Positions 23,525 to 58,324 are shown, counted from the stretch's first letter. The stretch is 60,664 nt of DNA from Chloroflexota bacterium (GCA_027623815.1 JAQBUV010000005.1:1-60664), one strand, 5' to 3'. Numbers and translations are program-made. Notes: generated by a model from the letters alone, not told the origin.

Positions 23525-24772
23525 ATGAAAGCCCTGATTGGAGCGAAACTAATTGACGGCACCGGTGGCCCGGTGATTGACGATGCCACGGTGCTCATTG
23601 ACGAGCCGCACATCGTCGAGGCTGGCCCCCGGGCGGCGGTGATGATTCCCGCCGATACTGAAATCATCGATGTGTCAGGCATGACCTTGATGCCCGGGCT
23701 GATCGACTGCCACGACCACCTGGCCTCCAAAGGCTACGATTTGGCCAGCCGTTGGGGACTGAATGAACCTATATCGCTGCGGCATTTGCGCACCGCCTAT
23801 GTCCTGGCCCAAACGCTGGCCGCCGGATACACTTGTGTGCGTGACGCTGGGGGCTTGGATGTTGGATTCAAGATGGCGGTGGAAGAAGGGCTATACCCGG
23901 GGCCAAGGCTGGTCAACTCCATCAGCATCATATCTCCCACCGGCGGTCTGGACGACCGGGTTAGCGGCTCAGGACATGCCCACGCGCATAACGACCCCCG
24001 GCTGCCTTCTGGAGTCGCCGACGGGGTGGACGCCGTGCGTACGAAAGTTCGTGAAATGGTCCGGGTCGGCGCCGACGTGATCAAGTTCGCCACCACCGGC
24101 GGCGCTAGTTCCCGGCCGGGACACGGCCCCAAAGACATCGAATACACGCCCGAGGAGGTCAAGGCGCTGGTGGCCGAGGCTCGCTCGCTGGGCCGCAACA
24201 CCATGTGCCATGCCGTGGGTGGTCAGGGACTGCGGAACGCAATTGAAGCTGGCGTCGGCTCAATTGAGCACGGGTGCTATCTGGCCGAAGACCCAGACCT
24301 GGCCAAAATGATGGCCGACCAGGGTATTTTTCTGGTGCCCACCTTTGAAGTCTACGAGTATCATTCCACGGTCAGCGCGCCGCACATGCAGGAACGGGCC
24401 AGGTCTTTAATGGAGATTCATAGAGAGAGCATGCATCAGGCCCTGGCCGCTGGCGTCAAAGTGGTGGCCGGAACTGACGCGGGCGGTTTTGTCCACGGCG
24501 ACAATGCCCGCGAGATCGAACTGCTGGTAGAACGGGGAATGTCCCCAATGCAAGCAATTCAGGCCGCCACCGGCTGGGCCGCCGAATGTGTTGGTCTGGA
24601 CAAAGAAATCGGCACCATTCAGAAGGGCAAGCTAGCCGACTTGCTGGTGCTGGACGGCGACCCGCTCAAAGACATCACCATTGTCCGAGACCAGGACCGA
24701 ATGATGCTGGTTATGAAGGGCGGTCAAGTCTTTGTTGACCTGCTGCCGATGGGAGAGCCTCTGGCGGTGTAG
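23525..24772 (+). CDS. Metal-dependent amidohydrolase (Xaa-Pro dipeptidase-like subgroup)
   Basis: [38 protein letters not shown] 23525 follows GGAGGT. Confidence 0.9.
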
Positions 24773-24837
24773 GCCAAAAAGCAGATTGCCGCCAACCAAT
24801 CTATAGACCTACCGGTTCCCTGCTGTATCATGCAAAC

Positions 24838-25599
24838 ATGAAGTTTCACGTACTAACCCTGTTCCCAGAGGCTTTCTCTGGCCCTATGCAACACAGCATG
24901 TTGGGCCGCGCTCAGGAACGGGGGTTGATCTCGATACAGCTAACCGACATTCGTGACCATGCCCACGATGCCCACAACACTGCCGACGATTACCAATTTG
25001 GCGGCGGTTTCGGCATGGTGATGAAGCCAGAGCCAATATTTGAGGCCGTGGAGGATGTATTGTCCTCCCGTTCCCAAGAGGAGCGTCGGGACATACCAGT
25101 GATCCTGATGTCACCCCAGGGTGAAACCCTCGATCAAGAGATGGTTGAAGAGTTAGCCCACGAAGGTGAATTGGTTCTGATTTGCGGCCATTACGCGGGC
25201 GTGGACGAACGGGTCCGAGAACACTTGATCACCCGAGAAGTGAGCATCGGCGACTACGTGCTCACCGGCGGCGAGTTGGCGGCTATGGTGCTGATCGACG
25301 CGGTGTCCCGGTTTATCGACGGCGTGGTTGGCTCTCAGGAAAACGTTCTGGAGGACTCAATCACCTGCGGGCTGCTGCAACACCCGCTGTACACCCGTCC
25401 GGCTGATTTTCGCGAGTTCTCAGTGCCGGAAATCCTCCGCTCTGGGCATCACGCCGAGATCGAGCGGTGGCGGCGGCTTCAATCGCTTCGGATAACCCTG
25501 GAGAAGCGCCCCGACTTGCTGTCCACCGCTGATCTTACGTTAAATGACCTGGCGTTCCTGCAATCGCTGGGATGGCCCCCGCCGGAATCCCCGGAATAA
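24838..25599 (+). CDS. trmD: tRNA (guanine37-N1)-methyltransferase
   Basis: [59 protein letters not shown]. Confidence 0.97.
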
Positions 25600-33481: not shown

Positions 33482-33706
33482 CTAAGGCCGCCGACCCTCG
33501 TAACAGTCATTGCACAGAAACACAATGGCCAGCGCGTCTTCGTGGCTGGCGATACGACCGCACAGGGGTATATCGCTGCCCTCTGTCCAGGGGCGGTGGA
33601 ACCCGCCGCCGCACATCTGACAGGAAGTCTGATGAACCCCATCCAGCGGGCCGTCGCAGATTACGCACGATTCCTGATCCAACTCTTGATCTACAGCCTC
33701 AGACAT
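33482..33706 (-). CDS. Small Cys/His-rich zinc-finger-like protein
   Basis: 74 aa from ATG 33706, overlapping the cca stop; CVIC...CQMCGGGFH...C...CNDC. Confidence 0.7.
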   Translation of the reverse strand: MSEAVDQELDQESCVICDGPLDGVHQTSCQMCGGGFHRPWTEGSDIPLCGRIASHEDALAIVFLCNDCYEGRRP

Positions 33707-34892
33707 CTTCTCTCCCGGCCAGAATCCTTCGCACCAATTGTCGCTCATCCTCTTCGGATTCCACCAGGCGGTCCAGTTTTGCCGTCCGCAATTTCCCCAG
33801 TATGCGACCGACCAGAGGGCCTTCAGTGACTCCCATAGCCAGCATCGAGTCGCCGTCCAAAATAGGATTAACCTGACACAATTCGGTCAGATACAGATCG
33901 AGTCTTTGCGACACCACGCCCGGGCGGCCAATCTGCGAGACGGCTGCTATTGCTTCTTCTGAGCGACCTTCAAGCAACTGGCATATCTCCGAGTTTGGCA
34001 GAGTAGCCGACGAAAACTGGGGTACAAGTTGCCTCAATTCCCCGGTGTCCTGTACTACTTTAGCCCAATGACCGGGCAAGTTAAAACGCTGGATGACCCC
34101 TTCGGCGTCCTGTGACGACAGGGGGTAGGCCAGCGCCGCCAAATACAGCATTGAGCTTGAGTGATTATCTCCGCTTGACCTGGAATCCAGGGATAATATT
34201 GGGGTCTGATCGATCAAAGCTGGATGGATGGCTTTCAGGACTCCCAGATCAATCGCCCGTGCTAAAGCCGGGCCGGGATGCTGCTCAGCCAAGATTCGTT
34301 CCAGTTCGTGGCGCAGCCGATCACCGCTGACCGCATCCATATAACCGCTGGCCAGAGCGTGCCGCAAGTGGGCTTTACTTTCTATTTCCAAAGCGAATCC
34401 AAACCGCTGCTCGTATCGCACTGCCCGCAGCATACGAGTTGGGTCATCGGCAAAGCTTAGCGGGTGCAGGGTTCGGATCAAGCCTTTGCCCAATTCATCG
34501 ATACCGTGATGCTCGTCGATAGGCTGGGGGACAGACTGGAACAGAGGCAAAGCCAGGGTGTTGATGGAAAAGTCGCGGCGGGCCAGGTCATCGTGTATCG
34601 TGCCGGGTGAAACCTCCGGCAGCGCGCCAGGGGCTGAATACACTTCCTGGCGAGCCGTTACCAGGTCAATATGACAATCTTCGTGGGACACGGTGGCGGT
34701 GCCAAAACGGTCATGTACCACCAAATGCCAGCCCAGTTCCCGCGCCAACTCCGAGGCCAGTTGCGGCGCGTCGCCTTCCAGCACAAAGTCCAGGTCAGTA
34801 GTCGGAGCACCCAACAGCACATCGCGAACCGGGCCGCCCACCAGGTACACCGGCAAAGATTCGGCCAAGGCTCTCTGGCGAAGGGTTTTCAA
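33699..34892 (-). CDS. cca: CCA tRNA nucleotidyltransferase / poly(A) polymerase family (true start may lie upstream, up to 34967)
   Basis: YLVGGPVRD.LLG....DLD, RFGTA, DLVTARQE.Y..PGALP, DLARRDFSIN, SFADDPTRMLRAVRYEQRF. Confidence 0.88.
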   Translation of the reverse strand: MKTLRQRALAESLPVYLVGGPVRDVLLGAPTTDLDFVLEGDAPQLASELARELGWHLVVHDRFGTATVSHEDCHIDLVTARQEVYSAPGALPEVSPGTIHDDLARRDFSINTLALPLFQSVPQPIDEHHGIDELGKGLIRTLHPLSFADDPTRMLRAVRYEQRFGFALEIESKAHLRHALASGYMDAVSGDRLRHELERILAEQHPGPALARAIDLGVLKAIHPALIDQTPILSLDSRSSGDNHSSSMLYLAALAYPLSSQDAEGVIQRFNLPGHWAKVVQDTGELRQLVPQFSSATLPNSEICQLLEGRSEEAIAAVSQIGRPGVVSQRLDLYLTELCQVNPILDGDSMLAMGVTEGPLVGRILGKLRTAKLDRLVESEEDERQLVRRILAGREDV

Positions 34893-35069: not shown

Positions 35070-35097
35070 TGGACATCAACGGCCGCTATGCTACAAT
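35070..35097 (+). promoter_or_regulatory. Promoter for the DsbA(Sec)-rnc-ftsY transcript
   Basis: TGGACA (35070-75), 16 nt, TGc-TACAAT (35092-97). Confidence 0.5.
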
Positions 35098-35148
35098 CCT
35101 GACAGCGCATCCGTGGGTTTCTACGAGCACAATTTCAGGAGGTAGAGC

Positions 35149-35784
35149 ATGTCCGAGTTTAACTTCACCACATACTACGACTTTCGTTGACCCTTCGTAT
35201 ACAACGCAGCCGTGTGGCTGTCGAAGGTAAGAGAGACCACCGGACAGTCGGTGGATGTCGACTGGCAGCCCTTCTCGCTGGCCCAGGCCAATAGTGCGGA
35301 CAAGGGCGAGGATTTTAAAATCTGGGAGCAGCCGGGGATAATAGACGGTTCGGACACAGCGTTACTGGCTCACCGCGCTGGCTTGGCCGCCAAGCGTCAG
35401 GGTAAAGAGGCATTTGAGTCCTACTTGATGACCCTACTAAAGGCCCGCCACGAAGAGAAGAAAGACCTGACCGACCCGGCGGTGATCCACGATGCTGGGG
35501 TCGCTGCCGGCATCGACATGGGACAGTTCCAGGAGGACCTGCTCGATCCTGATCTGCTGCGGGAAATCGGCGAAAGCCACACCAAGGCCGTTGAAGAACA
35601 CGGCGCATTCGGTGTGCCGACCTATGTGTTCCCGGGCGGTGGCACGGCGTTCATCAAGATGTTCGTCCCCCCCGATGAACAGGCCGGAGCCATCTACAAC
35701 AACCTGAGCGAAATGGTCTCCACCCTGATGCACGTCGGCGAGGTCAAGCGGCCCCAGCCGCCCTGGCCCCACGGTGTTATCTAG
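35149..35784 (+). CDS. DsbA-family (Rv2466c-like) thioredoxin-fold protein, probable selenoprotein (U14)
   Basis: SD AGGAGGT then ATG 35149 reads MSEFNFTTYYDFR-TGA(35188-90)-PFVYNAAVWL, in frame with the 35212 ORF. TGA sits at the Cys of DxxCP. cis-Pro motif FGVPT present. Confidence 0.85.
35191..35227 (+). promoter_or_regulatory. Candidate bacterial SECIS element
   Basis: CCTTCG/CGAAGG lower stem and CAGCC-GTGT-GGCTG apical hairpin; loop starts 21 nt after UGA. Confidence 0.7.
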
Positions 35785-35796
35785 GAAGATTATCGC

Positions 35797-36504
35797 TTGA
35801 GCACGGAACGATTAACTGAACGGTTAGAGGCTGTGCTGGGTTTGTCCTTCAATAACCAGGGCTTGTTACAACAGGCCCTGGTTCATGGTTCCTTTCTCAA
35901 CGAGCAGGGCGGCTCATCGCTAGATTCCTACGAGCGGATGGAGTTCTTGGGGGATGCCGTCTTGGAACTGGTGGTCTCAACCGAAATTTACCACCGGCTG
36001 CCTCAACTTCCAGAAGGGGGACTGACCAAAATCCGCGCCGGTCTGGTGTGCCGGGAAAGTCTGTCCCAAGCCGCCCAATCTATCAATCTGGGCAGCTTCC
36101 TGTCCCTGGGCAGGGGTGAGGAAGCCTCTGGCGGCAGGGAGCGGGACTCGATTCTGGAAGCGGCATTTGAAGCCCTGGTTGCCGCCATCTATCTGGACCA
36201 GGGATACGAACCAGCTCGCGGCTTCATACTGAAATCCTTGCACGACGCCCTGGCAGACGTTTGTCGGCGGGGTTCTTCGTTAGACAACCCCAAGTCGGCT
36301 CTGCAGGAATATATTCAAGGCCAGGGCAAGCCAGCGCCTCGTTATCAGCTGGTGTCGGCGGAAGGCCCCGATCACAGTCCAGTATTCACCGTGGAAGTCT
36401 TGGTCGGCGATCAGGTCATTGGTGCGGGACGGGGCGCCAAGAAGTCCGACGCTGAACGCGACGCCGCCCTGGATGCTTTGCAAAAATCCGCTATCCAACC
36501 GTAA
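35797..36504 (+). CDS. rnc: Ribonuclease III
   Basis: ERMEFLGDAVLEL, LGRGEE.SGGR, AFEALVAAIYLD, dsRBD NPKSALQE...GPDH. Confidence 0.97.
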   Translation: MSTERLTERLEAVLGLSFNNQGLLQQALVHGSFLNEQGGSSLDSYERMEFLGDAVLELVVSTEIYHRLPQLPEGGLTKIRAGLVCRESLSQAAQSINLGSFLSLGRGEEASGGRERDSILEAAFEALVAAIYLDQGYEPARGFILKSLHDALADVCRRGSSLDNPKSALQEYIQGQGKPAPRYQLVSAEGPDHSPVFTVEVLVGDQVIGAGRGAKKSDAERDAALDALQKSAIQP

Positions 36505-36565: not shown

Positions 36566-37522
36566 ATGTTTAGCATCTTCAAACGCAATCGCGCCGAAAA
36601 CAAAAAGCAGACCGATGAAGGCGTCAAGCGCAGTCGGGAACGCTGGTTTGGCAAGGTCTTGGGCCTGCTACGTTCTTCCCGGCTGGATGACTCAGTGTGG
36701 GATGAATTAGAGGAAATCCTGATATCCGCCGATGTGGGTGTCGAGACTTCATTGGGCATCATCGAAGAGTTAAAATCCCAGGTCAAAGACCAACGTATTG
36801 AAGACCCGGAGCAGGCTTTTGAGAAGCTCAAGGAAACCTTGGCCCAGGGATTTGGCTCAAATAATTCCAGCGACGTATGGCTGGACAACGATGATGAACC
36901 CCGGCCCTACGTGATCTTGATGGTGGGAGTTAATGGCGTTGGCAAGACCACCAGCATCGCCAAGCTGGCCTACCACTTCAAGCGGGCGGGCAAGAAGGTG
37001 GTGCTGGGCGCAGCGGACACCTTCCGCGCCGCCGCTGAGGAACAGTTGGAAATCCTTGGTGAGCGCGTGGGCGTAGATGTTATCAGTCACAGTCCCGGCG
37101 CTGACCCCGGAGCGGTGGCTTACGACGCTTATCAGGCTGCCAAAGCCCGCAACGCCGACGTGCTGATTATCGACACCGCCGGACGTTTGCACACCAAGTC
37201 TAACTTAATGGAAGAGTTGAAGAAGGTGCATCGGGTGATCGCCCGCCTGGAACCCACCGCTCCCCACCAGGTGCTGCTGACCCTGGACGCCACCACCGGA
37301 CACAATGGTCTGGCCCAAGCCAAGTCCTTCAAGGACTCGGTCAATTGCACTGGCATCTTCTTGTCCAAGTTGGACGGTACCGCCCGGGGTGGCATCGCCT
37401 TGGCAATCCAGCAGGAACTACAGGTGCCCATACTGTTCATCGGCACCGGAGAATCGTTGGATGATATGGCTCCCTTCGACGCTAAGGACTTTGTGGACGC
37501 TTTACTTGCCCCGGTGTCCTAG
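36566..37522 (+). CDS. ftsY: SRP receptor FtsY
   Basis: GVNGVGKTTSIAKLA, DTFRAAA, DTAGRLH, KLDGTARGG, GTGE. Confidence 0.97.
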   Translation: MFSIFKRNRAENKKQTDEGVKRSRERWFGKVLGLLRSSRLDDSVWDELEEILISADVGVETSLGIIEELKSQVKDQRIEDPEQAFEKLKETLAQGFGSNNSSDVWLDNDDEPRPYVILMVGVNGVGKTTSIAKLAYHFKRAGKKVVLGAADTFRAAAEEQLEILGERVGVDVISHSPGADPGAVAYDAYQAAKARNADVLIIDTAGRLHTKSNLMEELKKVHRVIARLEPTAPHQVLLTLDATTGHNGLAQAKSFKDSVNCTGIFLSKLDGTARGGIALAIQQELQVPILFIGTGESLDDMAPFDAKDFVDALLAPVS

Positions 37523-37605: not shown

Positions 37606-39990
37606 TTGATTGACGCCCTGGTCTGGTTCACCGCTATTGAGTTTCTGGGACTGCTGGCCTTTCCGCTGGCTTTCCTCCTCTTCAGCAGACTGCCCGACCG
37701 GGGCTACGCCTTCGCCAAACCGCTGGCCCTGGTGCTGGTGTCCTACCTGCTATGGATGCTGGGGCTGACCCAGTTCATCCCCAATTCCCCGGTTACCATC
37801 CTGGCCATTCTGCTGGCAATGCTGGTCATTTCAGGTTGGCTGCTGCGCCGTCATAAAACCGAGATACTCCGATTCCTGCGCTCAGAATGGAAAACGATCC
37901 TGATGGCTGAAGCGGTTTTCCTGGGCTTCTTTGTTTTCTGGCTGTTGATAGTTTCCGACGCTCCCGCCATCAACCACACCGAAAAACCTATGGATTTCGC
38001 GTTCCTGAACGCCATCCTGCAAAGTTCATCCTTCCCGCCGGAAGACCCCTGGCTGGCCGGGCACTCCATCAGCTACTACTACTTCGGTCATTTCATGATG
38101 GCCACTATCACGAAACTGACGGCGGTGCCTTCGCCGGTGGGTTACAACCTGGCGGTGGCCCTGGTGCCGGCATTATTGGCGATGGGAGTTTTTGGGCTGG
38201 TGTACAACTTGATACGGCTCTCCGGCGGCCGGGCCAGAGCAGCGATGAGTTTTGGCCTGGTCGCCACCGCCTTGCTGATTCTGATCGGCAATCTGGAAGG
38301 CACACTTGAACTGGCGAACGCTCAAGGTTGGGGCAACGATGGCTTTTGGCAGTGGGTTGGCATCAAAGGGCTGGAGGGGGCTGCCTCCGCCAGTCCGGGC
38401 GCGTTCCCGGAACAGTCCTGGTGGTGGTGGCGGGCCACGCGGGTAATCGACACCCTGAGCGGCGGCCAAAGCCTGGATTACACCATCACTGAGTTTCCCT
38501 TCTTTTCCTTTATTTTGGGTGACCTGCACCCCCACATGGTAAGTCTGCCCTTCCTGGTGATGTTCCTGGGAGCGTCCCTCAACATTTTCCAGACGCCAGA
38601 GCGGCTTGGCCTGGGCTGGCTGCTGCGGCATCCGTTGGAGTCAGTAATAGTTGCTTTGCTCCTGGGATCGCTGGCCTTCATCAACGCCTGGGACTTTCCG
38701 GTGTTCGCCGCCATCTTGGCGCTGGTGATCTTCGTCAAAGCATACCGGCCAAGCGGGCTAATGTTCGGCAAACAAGTGACCAACCCACTGGCCAGTGCGG
38801 CATCAAATACCCTGGTGACGATGGCCCCTATCGCCGCGATGGCGGTGCTCCTGTTCCTCCCTTTCTATCAAGGGTTCAGCAGTCAGGCGTCTGGAATTCT
38901 ACCCGTCACCGGCCCGGGCACCAGACCGTTTCTATTTTTTCTGGTGATGGGCCTCTTCGCACTGCTGGCAATTACCTTCCTGTTGAAGCAGCTTCCCGGA
39001 GTGAACCGTCCATCTGCGAAACAGGCTCCCATCATCCTGCTGGTGGCGTTGCTTTCAGTAGTCCCGTTGCTGTTGTGGGTATTGAGTGTGGCGGTGGCAG
39101 CCCTGATTACTGGTGACGGTACCGGAATTGCGTCCACAATTGGGGGCCGGATACCGTTGGTTCTACCCGGGTTGATCATCGCAAGCCTGGCCGCATTCAG
39201 CGCGTTGCAGCGAGTCAGCCATAACTCGAATCCCACGACTGCTTTTCCGTTGTTGTTGCTGGCGACATCCTTCTATTTATTGGTGGGCGCAGAGCTGTTT
39301 TTTGTGGTTGACCTCTTTGGAAATCGCATGAACACCGTCTTCAAGGTATACTTTCAGTCTTGGCTTTTGCTGGCGGTGGTTGGCGCTTACGGGTTGTACT
39401 ACTGGCGGGCGCACTGGGATTCCAGCAGCGTAGCTGTGAAGACACTCCAGTATGGTTGGTCGGGAGTGGTAGTGATTCTAGTGGCTGCATCGCTTTACTA
39501 CTCGGTGGGAGCGGTGATCAACCGAACGGGAATAACTTCCAGCAGCTATAGCTTTTCCGGCAAGACGTTGGACGGGCTGGCGTTTCTGAACCGTAGCGAC
39601 CCGGGTGAGTACGAAGCGGTGGTCTGGTTGAGGGATACGGCGGACAAAGGACGCATCGTCGAGGCGGTGGGCGGTGATTATTCCGACTACGGCCGGATTT
39701 CCTCCAGCACCGGATTGCCCACCATCCTGGGGTGGCCAGGGCACGAGCAACAATGGCGGGGGACTAGCAATCTGCATGAGGGGCGGGCCGAGGACGTGGC
39801 GAGCATCTATCAAAGCAACAATGCGGAGGAAGTGCTTCGATTGCTGAGCAAATATGGTGCCAAGTACGTGTATGTAGGGAGTCGTGAGCGCGCCAGCTAC
39901 GGCGGCACCGGAATGACCGATTTCACCAGCTTTATGAGAACCGCCTTTGCAGCCCCGGGCGTAGTAATCTACGAGAGAGCCCAAAATTAG
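37606..39990 (+). CDS. DUF2298 (Chlor_Arch_YYY) polytopic membrane protein, GT-C-like
   Basis: TEKPMDFAFLNA...PPEDPWLAGHSISYYYFG, TEFPFFSFILGDLHPH, RMNTVFKVY, GLPTILGWPGHE; paralog of the C-terminal half of 87-4589. Confidence 0.85.
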   Translation: MIDALVWFTAIEFLGLLAFPLAFLLFSRLPDRGYAFAKPLALVLVSYLLWMLGLTQFIPNSPVTILAILLAMLVISGWLLRRHKTEILRFLRSEWKTILMAEAVFLGFFVFWLLIVSDAPAINHTEKPMDFAFLNAILQSSSFPPEDPWLAGHSISYYYFGHFMMATITKLTAVPSPVGYNLAVALVPALLAMGVFGLVYNLIRLSGGRARAAMSFGLVATALLILIGNLEGTLELANAQGWGNDGFWQWVGIKGLEGAASASPGAFPEQSWWWWRATRVIDTLSGGQSLDYTITEFPFFSFILGDLHPHMVSLPFLVMFLGASLNIFQTPERLGLGWLLRHPLESVIVALLLGSLAFINAWDFPVFAAILALVIFVKAYRPSGLMFGKQVTNPLASAASNTLVTMAPIAAMAVLLFLPFYQGFSSQASGILPVTGPGTRPFLFFLVMGLFALLAITFLLKQLPGVNRPSAKQAPIILLVALLSVVPLLLWVLSVAVAALITGDGTGIASTIGGRIPLVLPGLIIASLAAFSALQRVSHNSNPTTAFPLLLLATSFYLLVGAELFFVVDLFGNRMNTVFKVYFQSWLLLAVVGAYGLYYWRAHWDSSSVAVKTLQYGWSGVVVILVAASLYYSVGAVINRTGITSSSYSFSGKTLDGLAFLNRSDPGEYEAVVWLRDTADKGRIVEAVGGDYSDYGRISSSTGLPTILGWPGHEQQWRGTSNLHEGRAEDVASIYQSNNAEEVLRLLSKYGAKYVYVGSRERASYGGTGMTDFTSFMRTAFAAPGVVIYERAQN

Positions 39991-48410: not shown

Positions 48411-48497
48411 AATTACTTCCTGCTAAAATCTCTTGGCCCCATTTTAACGGCTGTTTGCATCGCAGAAAAAGACTTCAACCCCATGTAATATTCGATA

Positions 48498-51116
48498 TCA
48501 CGTAGTCTCTTTCAGGCCCTTGGCTTGCTCTTGAAGCTCATACAGCTTGTTGATCGCCTCCAGGGGAGTCAAGTTGGCGATGTCCACGCCCAACACTTCC
48601 TCAACCAGCGGCTGGGACGGGCTGAACAGGGGCATCTGCAACACCGGCGGGCCAGACCTGGAACCACGTTTCCTCGAAGATTTTTGATCTAACAATGGCT
48701 GCTCAAGGTCGGACAACACCTCCCAGGCGCGGTGGATCACCGCCGGGGGCAGCCCGGCCAGTCGGGCGACATGCACGCCGTAACTACGATCGGCCCCGCC
48801 CGGGAGTATCCGATGCAGAAACACCACATCGTTGCCCTCTTCTACCACCGCGACGTTGTAGTTGCGCACTCCCGGCAGCGTATTAGCCAACTCGGTCAAT
48901 TCATGGTAGTGGGTGGCGAACAGGGCTTTACAGCGCAGCCTGGATTCGTTGTGCAGATGCTCAATTACCGCTCTGGCAATGGACAGGCCATCGTAGGTGC
49001 TGGTGCCGCGACCAATCTCGTCGAGAATCAGCAGCGAGCGGGGCGTAGCCTGGTTCAAAATGGCGGCGGTCTCCACCATTTCGACCATGAAGGTTGACTG
49101 CCCGGTGGTCAGGTCGTCCTGCAAACCAACCCGGGTGAAGATGCGGTCAACCAGCCCGATGACAGCCTCAGCGGCAGGCACAAAGCTGCCGATCTGGGCC
49201 ATCAGGGTAATGATAGCCACCTGCCGGATGTAGGTGGACTTGCCCGCCATGTTGGGGCCGGTAAGGACAATGATCTGGGCATCGTCATTGGAGAGATAAA
49301 CGTCATTGGGGACGTAGGAGCCAGTATCCAGCACCTGCTCTACCACGGGATGACGCCCATCTTTTATGGATACGACGTTGCCCTGATTAATCTGCGGGCG
49401 CACGTAGCGGTTTCTAACCGCCACTTCGGCCAGCCCGGCGAACACGTCCACCTGAGCCACGCCCTGGGCCAGACGGCTGATGGCCCCGGCAGATTCGGCA
49501 ATTTGGACGCACACCCGTCGGTAGAGGTCTCGCTCCATCTCCTCAATCCGCTCTCGGGCGGACAACACCAGCGACTCATACTCTTTCAACTCAGGCACCA
49601 TGTACCGCTGCCCGTTGGTCAGGGTCTGACGCCGGATATAATCTTCCGGCACCTGGGCCAGATTCGCGTTGCTGACTTCTATGTAGTAGCCAAAGACATG
49701 GTTGTAGCCAACTTTCAGATTCTTGATTCCGGTGCGTTCCCGCTCCCGCTGCTCCAGTCCAGCTATGAACCCTCGGGCGTCGCTGGAAGCTGATTTCAAA
49801 TGGTCTAGCTCGGCGGAAAATCCTGGGCGGAGGACGCCGCCCTCACCAACGCTGCCGGAGGGTTCAGGAGCAATGGAGTCGCCAATTAAAGCAACCACCT
49901 CTGGTATGGGCACCAACTCTTGCCCCAACCAGGACAACGAGCCGCCCTCGCAGCCCTTGCATTGCTCAGCCAAGACCGCCGACGCCTCTATTCCAGACTT
50001 CAGGGCCAGCAATTCCCGGGGAGCGGCTGTCCCCGCTTGAACCCGGCCGCAGACGCGCTCCAGATCGACAATCTTGGCTAGAGTATCCAGAGCAGTGCGT
50101 CGTTGGAAGGCATCCTGATGGAAAAATCCCACTGCGTCCAAACGACGGCTCAGTTGTGCCAGGTCCAGCAATGGCTGAGCCAACCAGCGGCGCAGCAATC
50201 TAGCGCCCATCGGGGTCTTGGTTTGGTCCAGCGTGGCCAGTAAAGATAGCTGGCTACTGCCCCCCCGTCCTGCTTGGAACAGCTCGAGATTGCGTCGGGT
50301 CGGGGCGTCCAGCGTCATGTAGGCGGCGGTGGAATAAGTGCTCAGCGGCCCTAGCTGAGGCTTGGCAGTCTTGTAGGTACGACCCAAATAATCAATGACG
50401 GCCCCGGCGGCCCGTACCGCCAAAGGCAGGGCCTCACAGCCAAAGGACTCCAAAGACAGGATTTGATATTGCTCAAGTAGGGCATCCCTACACACGTTAA
50501 GGTCAAAGGAGGCCGCGATTACTGGAGTGACATGGCGGCCCTCACCAACCGTTTGATCTACTGAGGACAATGCCAGCCCTTGATTGTCAGTCATCGAGGC
50601 ATCGGGCACCAGGACTTCTGCCGGTGAAACGCGCTCCAATTCCAACGATAGCCGGTCAGTGGGTAGTTGAGTAGTGGCAAACTCGCCGGTGGTTATGTCA
50701 ACGTAGGCCAGTCCAGCGGTGTCACCATCCTCGATGACTGCCGCCAGGTAATTGTTGGTCTTTTGCTCCAGCAGCCCCGACTCCACCACCGTGCCGGGAG
50801 TGACCACCCGCACCACATCTCGTTCCACCAGCCCCTTGGAAGCCGCCGGGTCGCTGAGCTGCTCACAAATGGCGACTTTGTGGCCCTTCTTGATGAGCCT
50901 GGCTAAATAGGACTCCAGAGCATGCGCCGGGACTCCCGCCATTGGCACTTTGAGGTCTTTGCCCATGCTGCGGGAGGTGAGGGTAATTTCCAATTCCCGC
51001 GCTGCCAACTGAGCGTCATCGTCGAAGGTCTCGTAAAAATCACCCAGGCGAAACAATACTATGGCGTCAGGGTATGAATGCTTGATTTTCAGATACTGGC
51101 GGCGTACCGGTGTCAC
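48498..51116 (-). CDS. mutS: DNA mismatch repair protein MutS
   Basis: FRLGDFYETF, TGPNMAGKSTY, STFMVEM, DEIGRGTSTYDG, FATHYHEL, SYGVHVARLAG. Confidence 0.98.
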   Translation of the reverse strand: MTPVRRQYLKIKHSYPDAIVLFRLGDFYETFDDDAQLAARELEITLTSRSMGKDLKVPMAGVPAHALESYLARLIKKGHKVAICEQLSDPAASKGLVERDVVRVVTPGTVVESGLLEQKTNNYLAAVIEDGDTAGLAYVDITTGEFATTQLPTDRLSLELERVSPAEVLVPDASMTDNQGLALSSVDQTVGEGRHVTPVIAASFDLNVCRDALLEQYQILSLESFGCEALPLAVRAAGAVIDYLGRTYKTAKPQLGPLSTYSTAAYMTLDAPTRRNLELFQAGRGGSSQLSLLATLDQTKTPMGARLLRRWLAQPLLDLAQLSRRLDAVGFFHQDAFQRRTALDTLAKIVDLERVCGRVQAGTAAPRELLALKSGIEASAVLAEQCKGCEGGSLSWLGQELVPIPEVVALIGDSIAPEPSGSVGEGGVLRPGFSAELDHLKSASSDARGFIAGLEQRERERTGIKNLKVGYNHVFGYYIEVSNANLAQVPEDYIRRQTLTNGQRYMVPELKEYESLVLSARERIEEMERDLYRRVCVQIAESAGAISRLAQGVAQVDVFAGLAEVAVRNRYVRPQINQGNVVSIKDGRHPVVEQVLDTGSYVPNDVYLSNDDAQIIVLTGPNMAGKSTYIRQVAIITLMAQIGSFVPAAEAVIGLVDRIFTRVGLQDDLTTGQSTFMVEMVETAAILNQATPRSLLILDEIGRGTSTYDGLSIARAVIEHLHNESRLRCKALFATHYHELTELANTLPGVRNYNVAVVEEGNDVVFLHRILPGGADRSYGVHVARLAGLPPAVIHRAWEVLSDLEQPLLDQKSSRKRGSRSGPPVLQMPLFSPSQPLVEEVLGVDIANLTPLEAINKLYELQEQAKGLKETT

Positions 51117-57682: not shown

Positions 57683-58324
57683 CTAGGAAGCCGGGGCCTC
57701 CAGCAACTTGCTCATCGCCGATTGGAAAATTTCGTAGGGGTGCGCCCCGGTGAAGAGCAGGTTGCCCACCACAAAGGTTGGTATCCCTCGGATGCCGTGC
57801 CCCAGGGCTTGCTGGTATTGCTCCATAACGGCAGGTGTGTACAGGCTGCTCTCCAATCCCGCCAGCAACTCAGTTGAATTCAACGAAACTTGCTGAGCCA
57901 GGCCCTCAATCACCGCCAGGTCGCCCAAGTCTTGTCCATCTTCCCAGTAGGCTTTGTAGGCCGCGTGGTGGAACTCCATGAACTTGCCCTGCCGCTGGGC
58001 GTACTCGGTGGCCTCCAAGATGTACATGGTGTTGGGAGTGACTTTGGGGGGCCGCATGATCAAGTTGGACTCGCTGGCTTGACTCCGCAGAGGCTCGCTA
58101 AGCTGGCCGTCGGCCTCACCGGGTCGGGGTTGCCGCACAATACCTTCCTTGGGGGTATCTGGCCGCAGCAAATACGCTTGGCCGACGATTGAAATGTTGT
58201 AGTCTTGACTCAACCGGTCGACTCTTTCCAGGCCGACATAGCACCAGGGTCAAATATAGTCGTACCAGACTACTACTTTAACCGGGTCGGAAGTGTTGAG
58301 GGGATGCTGGACAGGTTCGGTCAT
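57683..58324 (-). CDS. FrnE/DsbA-family thiol-disulfide oxidoreductase, probable selenoprotein (U25, UxxC)
   Basis: SD AGGAG then ATG 58324 reads ...VKVVVWYDYI-TGA(58252-50)-PWCYVGLER, in frame with the 58213 ORF; GIRGIPTF, TGAHPYE. Confidence 0.9.
58214..58249 (-). promoter_or_regulatory. Candidate bacterial SECIS element
   Basis: GTCGGC-CT-GGAA-AG-A-GTCGAC hairpin; loop starts 20 nt after UGA. Confidence 0.7.

Follow-up and report, generated by a model that had tools for sequence, protein, structure and literature searches.

A DsbA-like gene with an in-frame TGA

The window analyzed here, a 60,664-nucleotide (nt) stretch of the genome of a Chloroflexota bacterium (GCA_027623815.1 JAQBUV010000005.1:1-60664), carries on its plus strand a DsbA-like gene that very probably encodes a selenoprotein with a single selenocysteine (Sec). 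The coding sequence (35149-35784) opens with an ATG at 35149, meets an in-frame TGA at codon 14 (35188-35190), and ends with a TAG stop at 35782-35784. Read through the TGA, it specifies a 211-amino acid (aa) product that contains no Cys, and in which codon 14 falls in the context Y-Y-D-F-R-U-P-F-V-Y (core motif D-F-R-U-P-F-V). A Pfam DSBA match, an AlphaFold model, and orthologues all support this gene assignment. The Shine-Dalgarno sequence AGGAGG (35137-35142, plus strand) precedes the ATG, which begins six nt downstream. Further upstream (35070-35097, plus strand) is a candidate sigma-70-type promoter, TGGACA-16 nt-TACAAT with an extended -10 TG, recognized by consensus match alone (10 of 12 positions); five promoter-like sites occur in the 2.9 kb scanned, compared with 1.0 +/- 1.0 in shuffled sequences. 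Directly after the TGA, and within the coding sequence, lies a candidate bacterial selenocysteine insertion sequence (SECIS)-type hairpin (35192-35227, plus strand), proposed from its fold, its conservation, and its agreement with published constraints. The initial annotation, made from the DNA alone, had described a promoter, a strong Shine-Dalgarno sequence, the ATG, the TGA at codon 14, and a hairpin, and we recovered every one of them in the same place.

Under genetic code table 11, the locus yields only a 190-aa frame that starts at GTG 35212. Public gene calls for the family are 189-194 aa long and mostly begin right past the TGA, which bears out the initial suspicion that standard annotation would truncate the protein. 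The N-terminal extension, with its own Shine-Dalgarno sequence, recurs in relatives of the window gene: among the 20 closest family loci, a GGAGG-type site precedes the homologous start, and the start codon lies exactly 13 codons before the TGA in 19 and 15 codons before it in the remaining one. The TGA is also bridged, with no listed difference at that point, by two contigs from RNA libraries (X8 and X10), which are 90-97% alike; these may stem from DNA carry-over, and we do not count them as evidence of transcription.

Conservation of the TGA codon and its exchange with cysteine

We searched 41 genomes, the window's own and 40 relatives, in all six frames and found the gene in 37; four genomes, estimated to be 82-96% complete, gave no match. 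Related loci belong to metagenome-assembled genomes of Chloroflexota and Dehalococcoidia, a number of which are marine. The match contains exactly one TGA in 35 of the 37 loci and no stop in the other two. When the 37 loci were fetched and aligned with tblastn, with identities ranging between 80% and 38%, the TGA stood at query column 14 in the same number, 35, and the remaining two (L057 and L058) carried Cys there, in D-Y-A-C-P-F-V and D-F-R-C-P-F-A. Homologues with Cys or Sec aligned to the TGA were what the initial annotation had asked for, and database proteins agree: 12 of the 13 fetched entries that span column 14 have Cys. The thirteenth (P0018) has W, most simply explained if its source translated TGA as Trp.

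The same pattern holds at greater distance. A search of 1.84 billion cluster representatives returned 507 relatives at E <= 0.001, and all 45 full-length relatives that were fetched have Cys at the motif. In a 44-row alignment of the window protein and 43 homologues (A2), the invariant columns are C14, which is Cys in all 43 homologues, together with G155, P157, and T158; D11, P15, W39, F42, L44, N48, H101, F154, E198, and K200 are conserved in at least 90% of rows.

A sequencing error at this codon finds no support in independent data. Contigs from an independent study (runs X3 and X5) span 35100-35800 and differ from the window only at 35316 and 35763, so that the TGC or TGT that might have undone the initial annotation is not seen and the TGA is intact. 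Because TGA serves as an ordinary stop in the window, where it terminates 12 of the 37 open frames of at least 250 codons, a code in which TGA stands for Trp or Gly is excluded.

The genome to which the window belongs (2.76 Mb in 154 contigs, 93.85% complete) also encodes the machinery that Sec decoding requires, as the initial annotation had anticipated: selA (555 bits), selB (356), selD (390), and tRNA-Sec (66) each score above their curated cut-offs. The selD match (G000:C76:14783-15706, minus strand; locus L011) itself contains one in-frame TGA, and to judge from the sequence, SelD of this genome is probably a selenoprotein too.

A hairpin downstream of the TGA

The hairpin comprises a lower stem (35192-35197 paired with 35222-35227), a 6-base pair (bp) upper stem (35206-35211 with 35216-35221), and the loop GUGU (35212-35215), and is spaced 21 nt from the UGA. 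For the surrounding 76 nt, the predicted folding energy is -28.6 kcal/mol (z = -2.4), a stability reached by 4 of 200 shuffled sequences; the hairpin alone accounts for -15.2 kcal/mol over 36 nt and -8.8 kcal/mol over 16 nt. The bacterial SECIS (bSECIS) model set out in section 5 of PMC13188914 calls for a loop of 3-9 nt with G in its first two positions, a stem of 4-16 bp, a distance of 16-37 nt from the UGA, and a minimum free energy <= -7.5 kcal/mol, and the window hairpin agrees with the model on all of these points.

Equivalent structures are found throughout the Sec forms. In a gapless alignment of 66 nt from each of the 35 (A1), a local stem of 5-7 bp occurs at the same place in all 35, with a 4-nt loop in 33; the mean energy over 23 nt is -9.5 kcal/mol, and 32 of the 35 are at or below -7.5 kcal/mol. 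The loop reads GUGU in 22 sequences and AUGU in 10. Two registers can be distinguished: in one, to which the window belongs, the stem is continuous, and in the other a U is bulged. In the bulged register, 79.6% of cells are paired and covariation is 0.178, compared with a mean of 0.111 after shuffling and with no shuffle of 500 reaching the observed value; sliding the partner by 1-3 columns lowers pairing to 17-61%. The clearest covariation signal in the hairpin is pair 21-39, which is U-A in 13 sequences, C-G in 12, and unpaired in 10, at synonymous third positions of Asn and Ala codons. Two loci (L041 and L042) have A-U at pair 25-34, where a change of the stem Ala to Thr or Asn is compensated by a change of the Leu codon CUG to UUG.

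The hairpin is not predicted in either of the Cys loci, although this control consists of two distant loci only (L057 and L058). Closer Cys-form DNA was sought by scans with the Cys homologue P0006, which returned Sec forms only: all 11 loci on genome contigs, and, on metagenome contigs, all 15 of the 18 loci that cover the N-terminus.

A second G+C-rich hairpin (35237-35254, CCACCGG-ACAG-UCGGUGG) lies 47 nt past the UGA. It was flagged as well as a terminator-like site of the minus strand and, by eye, is not retained in the more distant orthologues of A1.

Protein family and predicted fold

The window protein matches the Pfam family DSBA (PF01323) at 62.7 bits, well over the cut-off of 25.6 (E = 5e-17), and no crotonase domain was detected in the same scan. 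The Rv2466c-like family (PF22234) scores 26.1 bits, marginally under its cut-off of 27, and no NCBIfam model matches. An AlphaFold2 model built on A2 has high confidence (mean predicted local distance difference test, 93.5; predicted template-modeling score, 0.89) and places strand 1 at residues 4-10 and helix 1 at residues 15-31. In this model, residue 14 is at the nucleophile position of the thioredoxin fold, just before helix 1 and opposite the cis-Pro loop G-V-P-T. A strand 1 that begins at residue 4 leaves no space for a signal peptide, and the protein is therefore predicted to be cytoplasmic. The 190-aa product that starts at GTG 35212 would, according to the model, miss both strand 1 and the active-site motif.

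Foldseek comparison of the model with the Protein Data Bank gave as top match DR2335 of Deinococcus radiodurans (7DK9; C24S mutant, 7DKA), with a template-modeling (TM) score of 0.81 at 27% identity; 7DK9 is also the top solved relative by sequence (E = 3e-18). Next come Rv2466c (TM 0.67-0.72), the adaptor YjbH (0.64-0.65), kappa-class glutathione S-transferase (GST; 0.61-0.63), FrnE (0.59-0.61), and HCCA isomerase (0.60). The initial label of a DsbA/Rv2466c-like protein is thus right in its first half, and in its second needs amending: Rv2466c is second best both as a Pfam family and as a structure, and DR2335 is closest.

The second Cys of a CxxC-type motif, which would be expected of an Rv2466c-like protein, is absent here, where the motif is U-P-F-V. 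The resolving position is Val in 34 of the 35 Sec orthologues (U-P-[FYW]-V), and 30 of the 35 share with the window protein the complete lack of Cys that the initial annotation had described alongside the lone Sec. The remaining orthologue at the resolving position (L048, G034:C48) reads U-P-W-C, a Cys that was either regained or kept.

No fused or longer relatives of the window protein itself were found in a weak-evidence search. Among Cys homologues, three (P0131, P0149, and P0200) have an N-terminal dephospho-coenzyme A (CoA) kinase domain (Pfam CoaE, 157-169 bits). Three matches in a wider sample of the phylum, described below (G356:C52, G444:C1, and G275:C69), lie within longer open frames (473-850 aa), so that the DsbA-like domain may occur in additional fusions.

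Distribution and Sec/Cys evolution

Of 201 genomes sampled evenly across the class, 33 have a match at E <= 1e-10, including the genome of the window. Counted over the match rather than at column 14, the other 32 comprise 25 with one TGA, six with none, and one with a TAG. A search of a phylum sample with A2 found matches in 128 of 401 genomes, or 123 of 396 when five genomes flagged as unpublished (G371, G488, G275, G552, and G396) are left out; none of our other claims depends on these five. At 28 loci of this sample (L111 excluded), column 14 is Sec in six and Cys in 22.

A quick IQ-TREE phylogeny of 96 proteins (41 Sec and 55 Cys, with the Sec column kept in and entered as X) requires at least eight changes between Sec and Cys, at least four of them forced by starred branches; shuffled labels need approximately 31. 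The P0006 group forms a Cys clade nested within the window's own Sec family. As would be expected of a redox nucleophile, these at least eight exchanges point to residue 14 as the catalytic nucleophile.

Genomic neighborhood

The DsbA-like gene is followed on the plus strand, 12 nt past its stop, by rnc (RNase III; 35797-36504; Pfam Ribonucleas_3_3, Ribonuclease_3, and dsrm) and then by ftsY, encoding the signal recognition particle receptor GTPase (36566-37522; Pfam SRP54 and SRP54_N). Directly past ftsY is a gene for a 794-aa DUF2298 membrane protein (37606-39990, plus strand; Pfam, 385 bits). Upstream and divergent, on the minus strand, lies a gene with a Pfam PolyA_pol head domain (33699-34892; CCA-adding enzyme/poly(A) polymerase family), a homologue of which stands upstream in most family loci.

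The initial annotation placed the DsbA-like gene at the head of an rnc-ftsY operon. Within the order this arrangement holds up: rnc is the next gene, in the same orientation, in 36 of 37 loci, the Cys locus L057 included, and ftsY follows rnc in 23 of 37, the remaining flanks being too short to judge. Our scan found no plus-strand terminator-like site between the DsbA-like gene, rnc, and ftsY, and the three genes are probably co-transcribed. Outside the order the link is lost, since rnc adjoins the gene in five of the 28 phylum-sample loci and all five belong to the same order. Because rnc adjacency is confined to same-order loci, we rejected the idea that the family as a whole is functionally linked to RNase III; the linkage looks like gene order inherited within one order of Dehalococcoidia, with no functional coupling.

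Proposed mechanism

On the strength of the conserved codon, its exchange with Cys, and the complete decoding machinery, we hold with high confidence that the TGA at 35188-35190 is a selenocysteine codon and that the gene encodes a selenoprotein. SelB, acting on the hairpin, would deliver Sec-tRNA(Sec) to the UGA. In the finished protein, the selenolate would attack an oxidized sulfur, be it an S-thiolated protein, a sulfenate, or a small disulfide, to yield a selenenylsulfide. Because the motif U-P-F-V offers no resolving Cys, an external thiol would have to resolve this intermediate, and the reductant could be either a low-molecular-weight thiol or thioredoxin. The best precedent for monothiol-type chemistry of this kind appears to be Rv2466c/mycoredoxin-2, which, according to the parts of PMC6178380 that treat it, acts on S-mycothiolated proteins and reduces them through a monothiol mechanism that involves mycothiol and its reductase.

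By analogy, we regard as the most likely mechanism that of a monoselenol reductase which depends on an external thiol for its recycling, a choice that we make at roughly even confidence; the joint claim, that the protein is a selenoprotein and also works by monoselenol reductase chemistry, is likewise about evenly balanced between true and false. The genome bears on which small thiol might serve. In the 93.85% complete assembly gshB, bshC, and egtD were not found, and mshD reaches 90.7 bits, far under its cut-off of 163.1. We infer a dependence on an external small thiol, which fits these results. A more ambitious proposal, which we consider improbable, is that the protein forms the core of an undescribed thiol-redox system of Dehalococcoidia, a housekeeping monoselenol 'redoxin' in place of glutaredoxin, mycoredoxin, or bacilliredoxin. 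Such a system would use a different co-substrate, with coenzyme A as a candidate in view of the fusion of Cys homologues to dephospho-CoA kinase, in cells that lack above-cut-off signature genes for glutathione, bacillithiol, mycothiol, and ergothioneine.

Several considerations weigh against the main reading, a selenoprotein with monoselenol reductase chemistry. The conserved peptide N-A-A-V/M-W-L overlaps the loop and much of the stem of the hairpin, whose conservation is thus partly a coding constraint; the AUGU loop of 10 of the 35 Sec forms breaks the published G rule; and the continuous register, taken over all sequences, resembles shuffled sequences on most measures. The hairpin model was derived from the window's own fold, and a slide control favors such a model, and the cells in which covariation was counted are sequences rather than independent events. 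Rfam gave no match, whether the entire window was scanned at the gathering score or the hairpin region at E <= 10, a null that says little as bacterial SECIS elements are poorly covered there. Turning to the protein, the structural neighbors include transferases and isomerases (kappa-class GST and HCCA isomerase) and the adaptor YjbH, and the closest solved relative, DR2335, has no function reported in section 2.4 of PMC8945050.

Alternative explanations

The transferases and isomerases among these neighbors suggest the first alternative: the protein would be a genuine selenoprotein that works as a thiol transferase or isomerase, in the manner of kappa-class GST or HCCA isomerase. The residue of a D-x-x-[S/C/U]-P motif would then activate or carry a bound small thiol for addition to an organic substrate, and disulfides would undergo no net reduction. 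In kappa-class GST and HCCA isomerase this residue is the Ser of an S-P motif and the thiol is glutathione. A motif with a single nucleophile and no resolving Cys suits such a role, as do the structural matches (TM 0.61-0.63 and 0.60). These matches are nevertheless weaker than those to DR2335 and Rv2466c, column 14 is Cys or Sec in 44 of 44 aligned members and Ser in none, and gshB, the signature gene of glutathione synthesis, was not found in the genome. We consider a role of this type unlikely.

Less probable still is a selenoprotein that acts as a peroxidase, in which peroxides would oxidize Sec to a selenenic acid that thioredoxin or a small thiol recycles, after the model of 1-Cys peroxiredoxins (Prx) and Sec-containing glutathione peroxidases (GPx). 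A thioredoxin fold that bears a lone Sec and lacks Cys would suit this chemistry, and the thioredoxin-fold selenoproteins of Table 3 in PMC1088965 that have a single Sec without a partner Cys include GPx (UxxT) and Prx (TxxU). The peroxiredoxin and GPx families, however, went unmatched in the Pfam and NCBIfam scans, no peroxidase is among the structural matches listed, and we find the role hard to favor.

A third possibility retains redox chemistry and changes the co-substrate. The dephospho-CoA kinase fusions (the CoaE domain of P0131, P0149, and P0200) point to coenzyme A, and the protein would then be a CoA-dependent redoxin that de-CoA-lates proteins or handles CoA disulfides. That the signature genes of four common small thiols all fall below the family cut-off in the genome is consistent with this. 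Set against it, coaE is on another contig here and adjoins the DsbA-like gene in none of 28 other loci, and mere adjacency can also give rise to a fusion; no CoA-disulfide reductase passes its cut-off (best 85 bits vs 579), a weak control in that none of 14 control genomes passed it. A dependence on CoA is, in our estimate, slightly more doubtful than a peroxidase.

That the TGA simply ends translation or reflects a sequencing error, with the true gene being the 190-aa frame from GTG 35212, or that under another genetic code it encodes Trp or Gly, is very improbable: the 189-194-aa database gene calls and the W at column 14 of P0018 would fit, but the 13 upstream codons, the Shine-Dalgarno sequence, and the frame are all conserved, the 190-aa product lacks strand 1 and the active-site motif, homologues carry Cys and not Trp at the column, TGA ends 12 of the 37 long frames of the window, the Sec machinery is complete, and the TGA recurs in 35 genomes and in independent assemblies.

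Comparison with known systems

Reading the gene as one for a selenoprotein puts right a recurrent mis-annotation that has left hundreds of public gene calls without their first strand and active site. The single-Cys DR2335-type branch of the DsbA superfamily would have a widespread Sec form in Chloroflexota, in hosts that are abundant, uncultured marine and estuarine Dehalococcoidia. Since the usual small-thiol signature genes were not found above their cut-offs, an enzyme that needs recycling by an external thiol would also provide a practical handle on which thiol these Dehalococcoidia use.

Rv2466c of Mycobacterium tuberculosis has the motif CPWC; the window protein differs in having U-P-F-V and no Cys, and in scoring under the PF22234 cut-off. 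The two proteins share a (predicted, for the window protein) cytoplasmic DsbA fold and possibly monothiol chemistry in which a small thiol takes part. For Rv2466c, both monothiol and dithiol mechanisms are described in PMC6178380. The mycothiol of that system has its signature gene, mshD, below cut-off in the window's genome. Kappa-class GST and HCCA isomerase likewise share a DsbA-like fold and one catalytic residue followed by Pro; they are weaker structural matches, and the window family has Cys or Sec at this column throughout.

Selenoproteins of the DsbA-like class have been recognized since 2005, when nine sequences with the motif UxxC, assigned to COG2761, were listed from the Sargasso Sea (PMC1088965); they were listed again in 2006 (PMC1794560), and Table 3 of PMC5029168 counts them in 41 organisms in 2016. 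This first form, of the COG2761/FrnE type, shares with the window protein the family PF01323 and the placement of Sec, which occupies the first site of the motif that corresponds to CxxC. It keeps the resolving Cys, in contrast to the window family, where one of 35 orthologues (L048) has it and the window motif is U-P-F-V. A second form, PF01323 with the motif DxxUP, appears in Table 1 of a 2026 catalogue of prokaryotic selenoproteins (PMC13188914), and D-F-R-U-P of the window fits it, as far as comparison by printed motif alone can tell. Dehalococcoidia genomes with 46-49 selenoproteins are recorded in BSepDB; our literature search found no paper on selenoproteins in SAR202.

The window contains a candidate of the first form as well, on the minus strand (57683-58324): 213 aa with one in-frame TGA, in W-Y-D-Y-I-U-P-W-C, a UxxC motif, and a Pfam DSBA score of 105 bits. 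Two other in-frame TGA candidates in the window were rejected on inspection, one at 24736, which belongs to a trmD-like frame (24586-25599), and one at 49095, which lies on the opposite strand of an 890-aa frame (48444-51116, minus strand) resembling DNA mismatch-repair proteins.

The closest known relative remains DR2335 (DR_2335; 7DK9 and 7DKA). Section 2.4 of PMC8945050 and the passages on it in PMC6300522 present it as DsbA-like, predicted to be cytoplasmic, and equipped with one conserved Cys, and give no functional or expression data; we found no functional paper on DR2335 and none on structure 7DK9. With function and expression unreported, DR2335 gives no mechanism to carry over. Its D-F-L-C-P-Y-A aligns with D-F-R-U-P-F-V of the window protein, and both have a C-terminal [IV]-[KR]-R-P motif; DR2335 differs in its Cys in place of Sec and in its length, 232 aa with insertions. 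The window protein combines one invariant Cys/Sec position and a predicted cytoplasmic DsbA fold with similarity to DR2335 in both sequence and modeled structure. By these comparisons, it is best placed as the putative Sec form of the DR2335-type single-Cys branch, within a class of DsbA-like selenoproteins that was already known.

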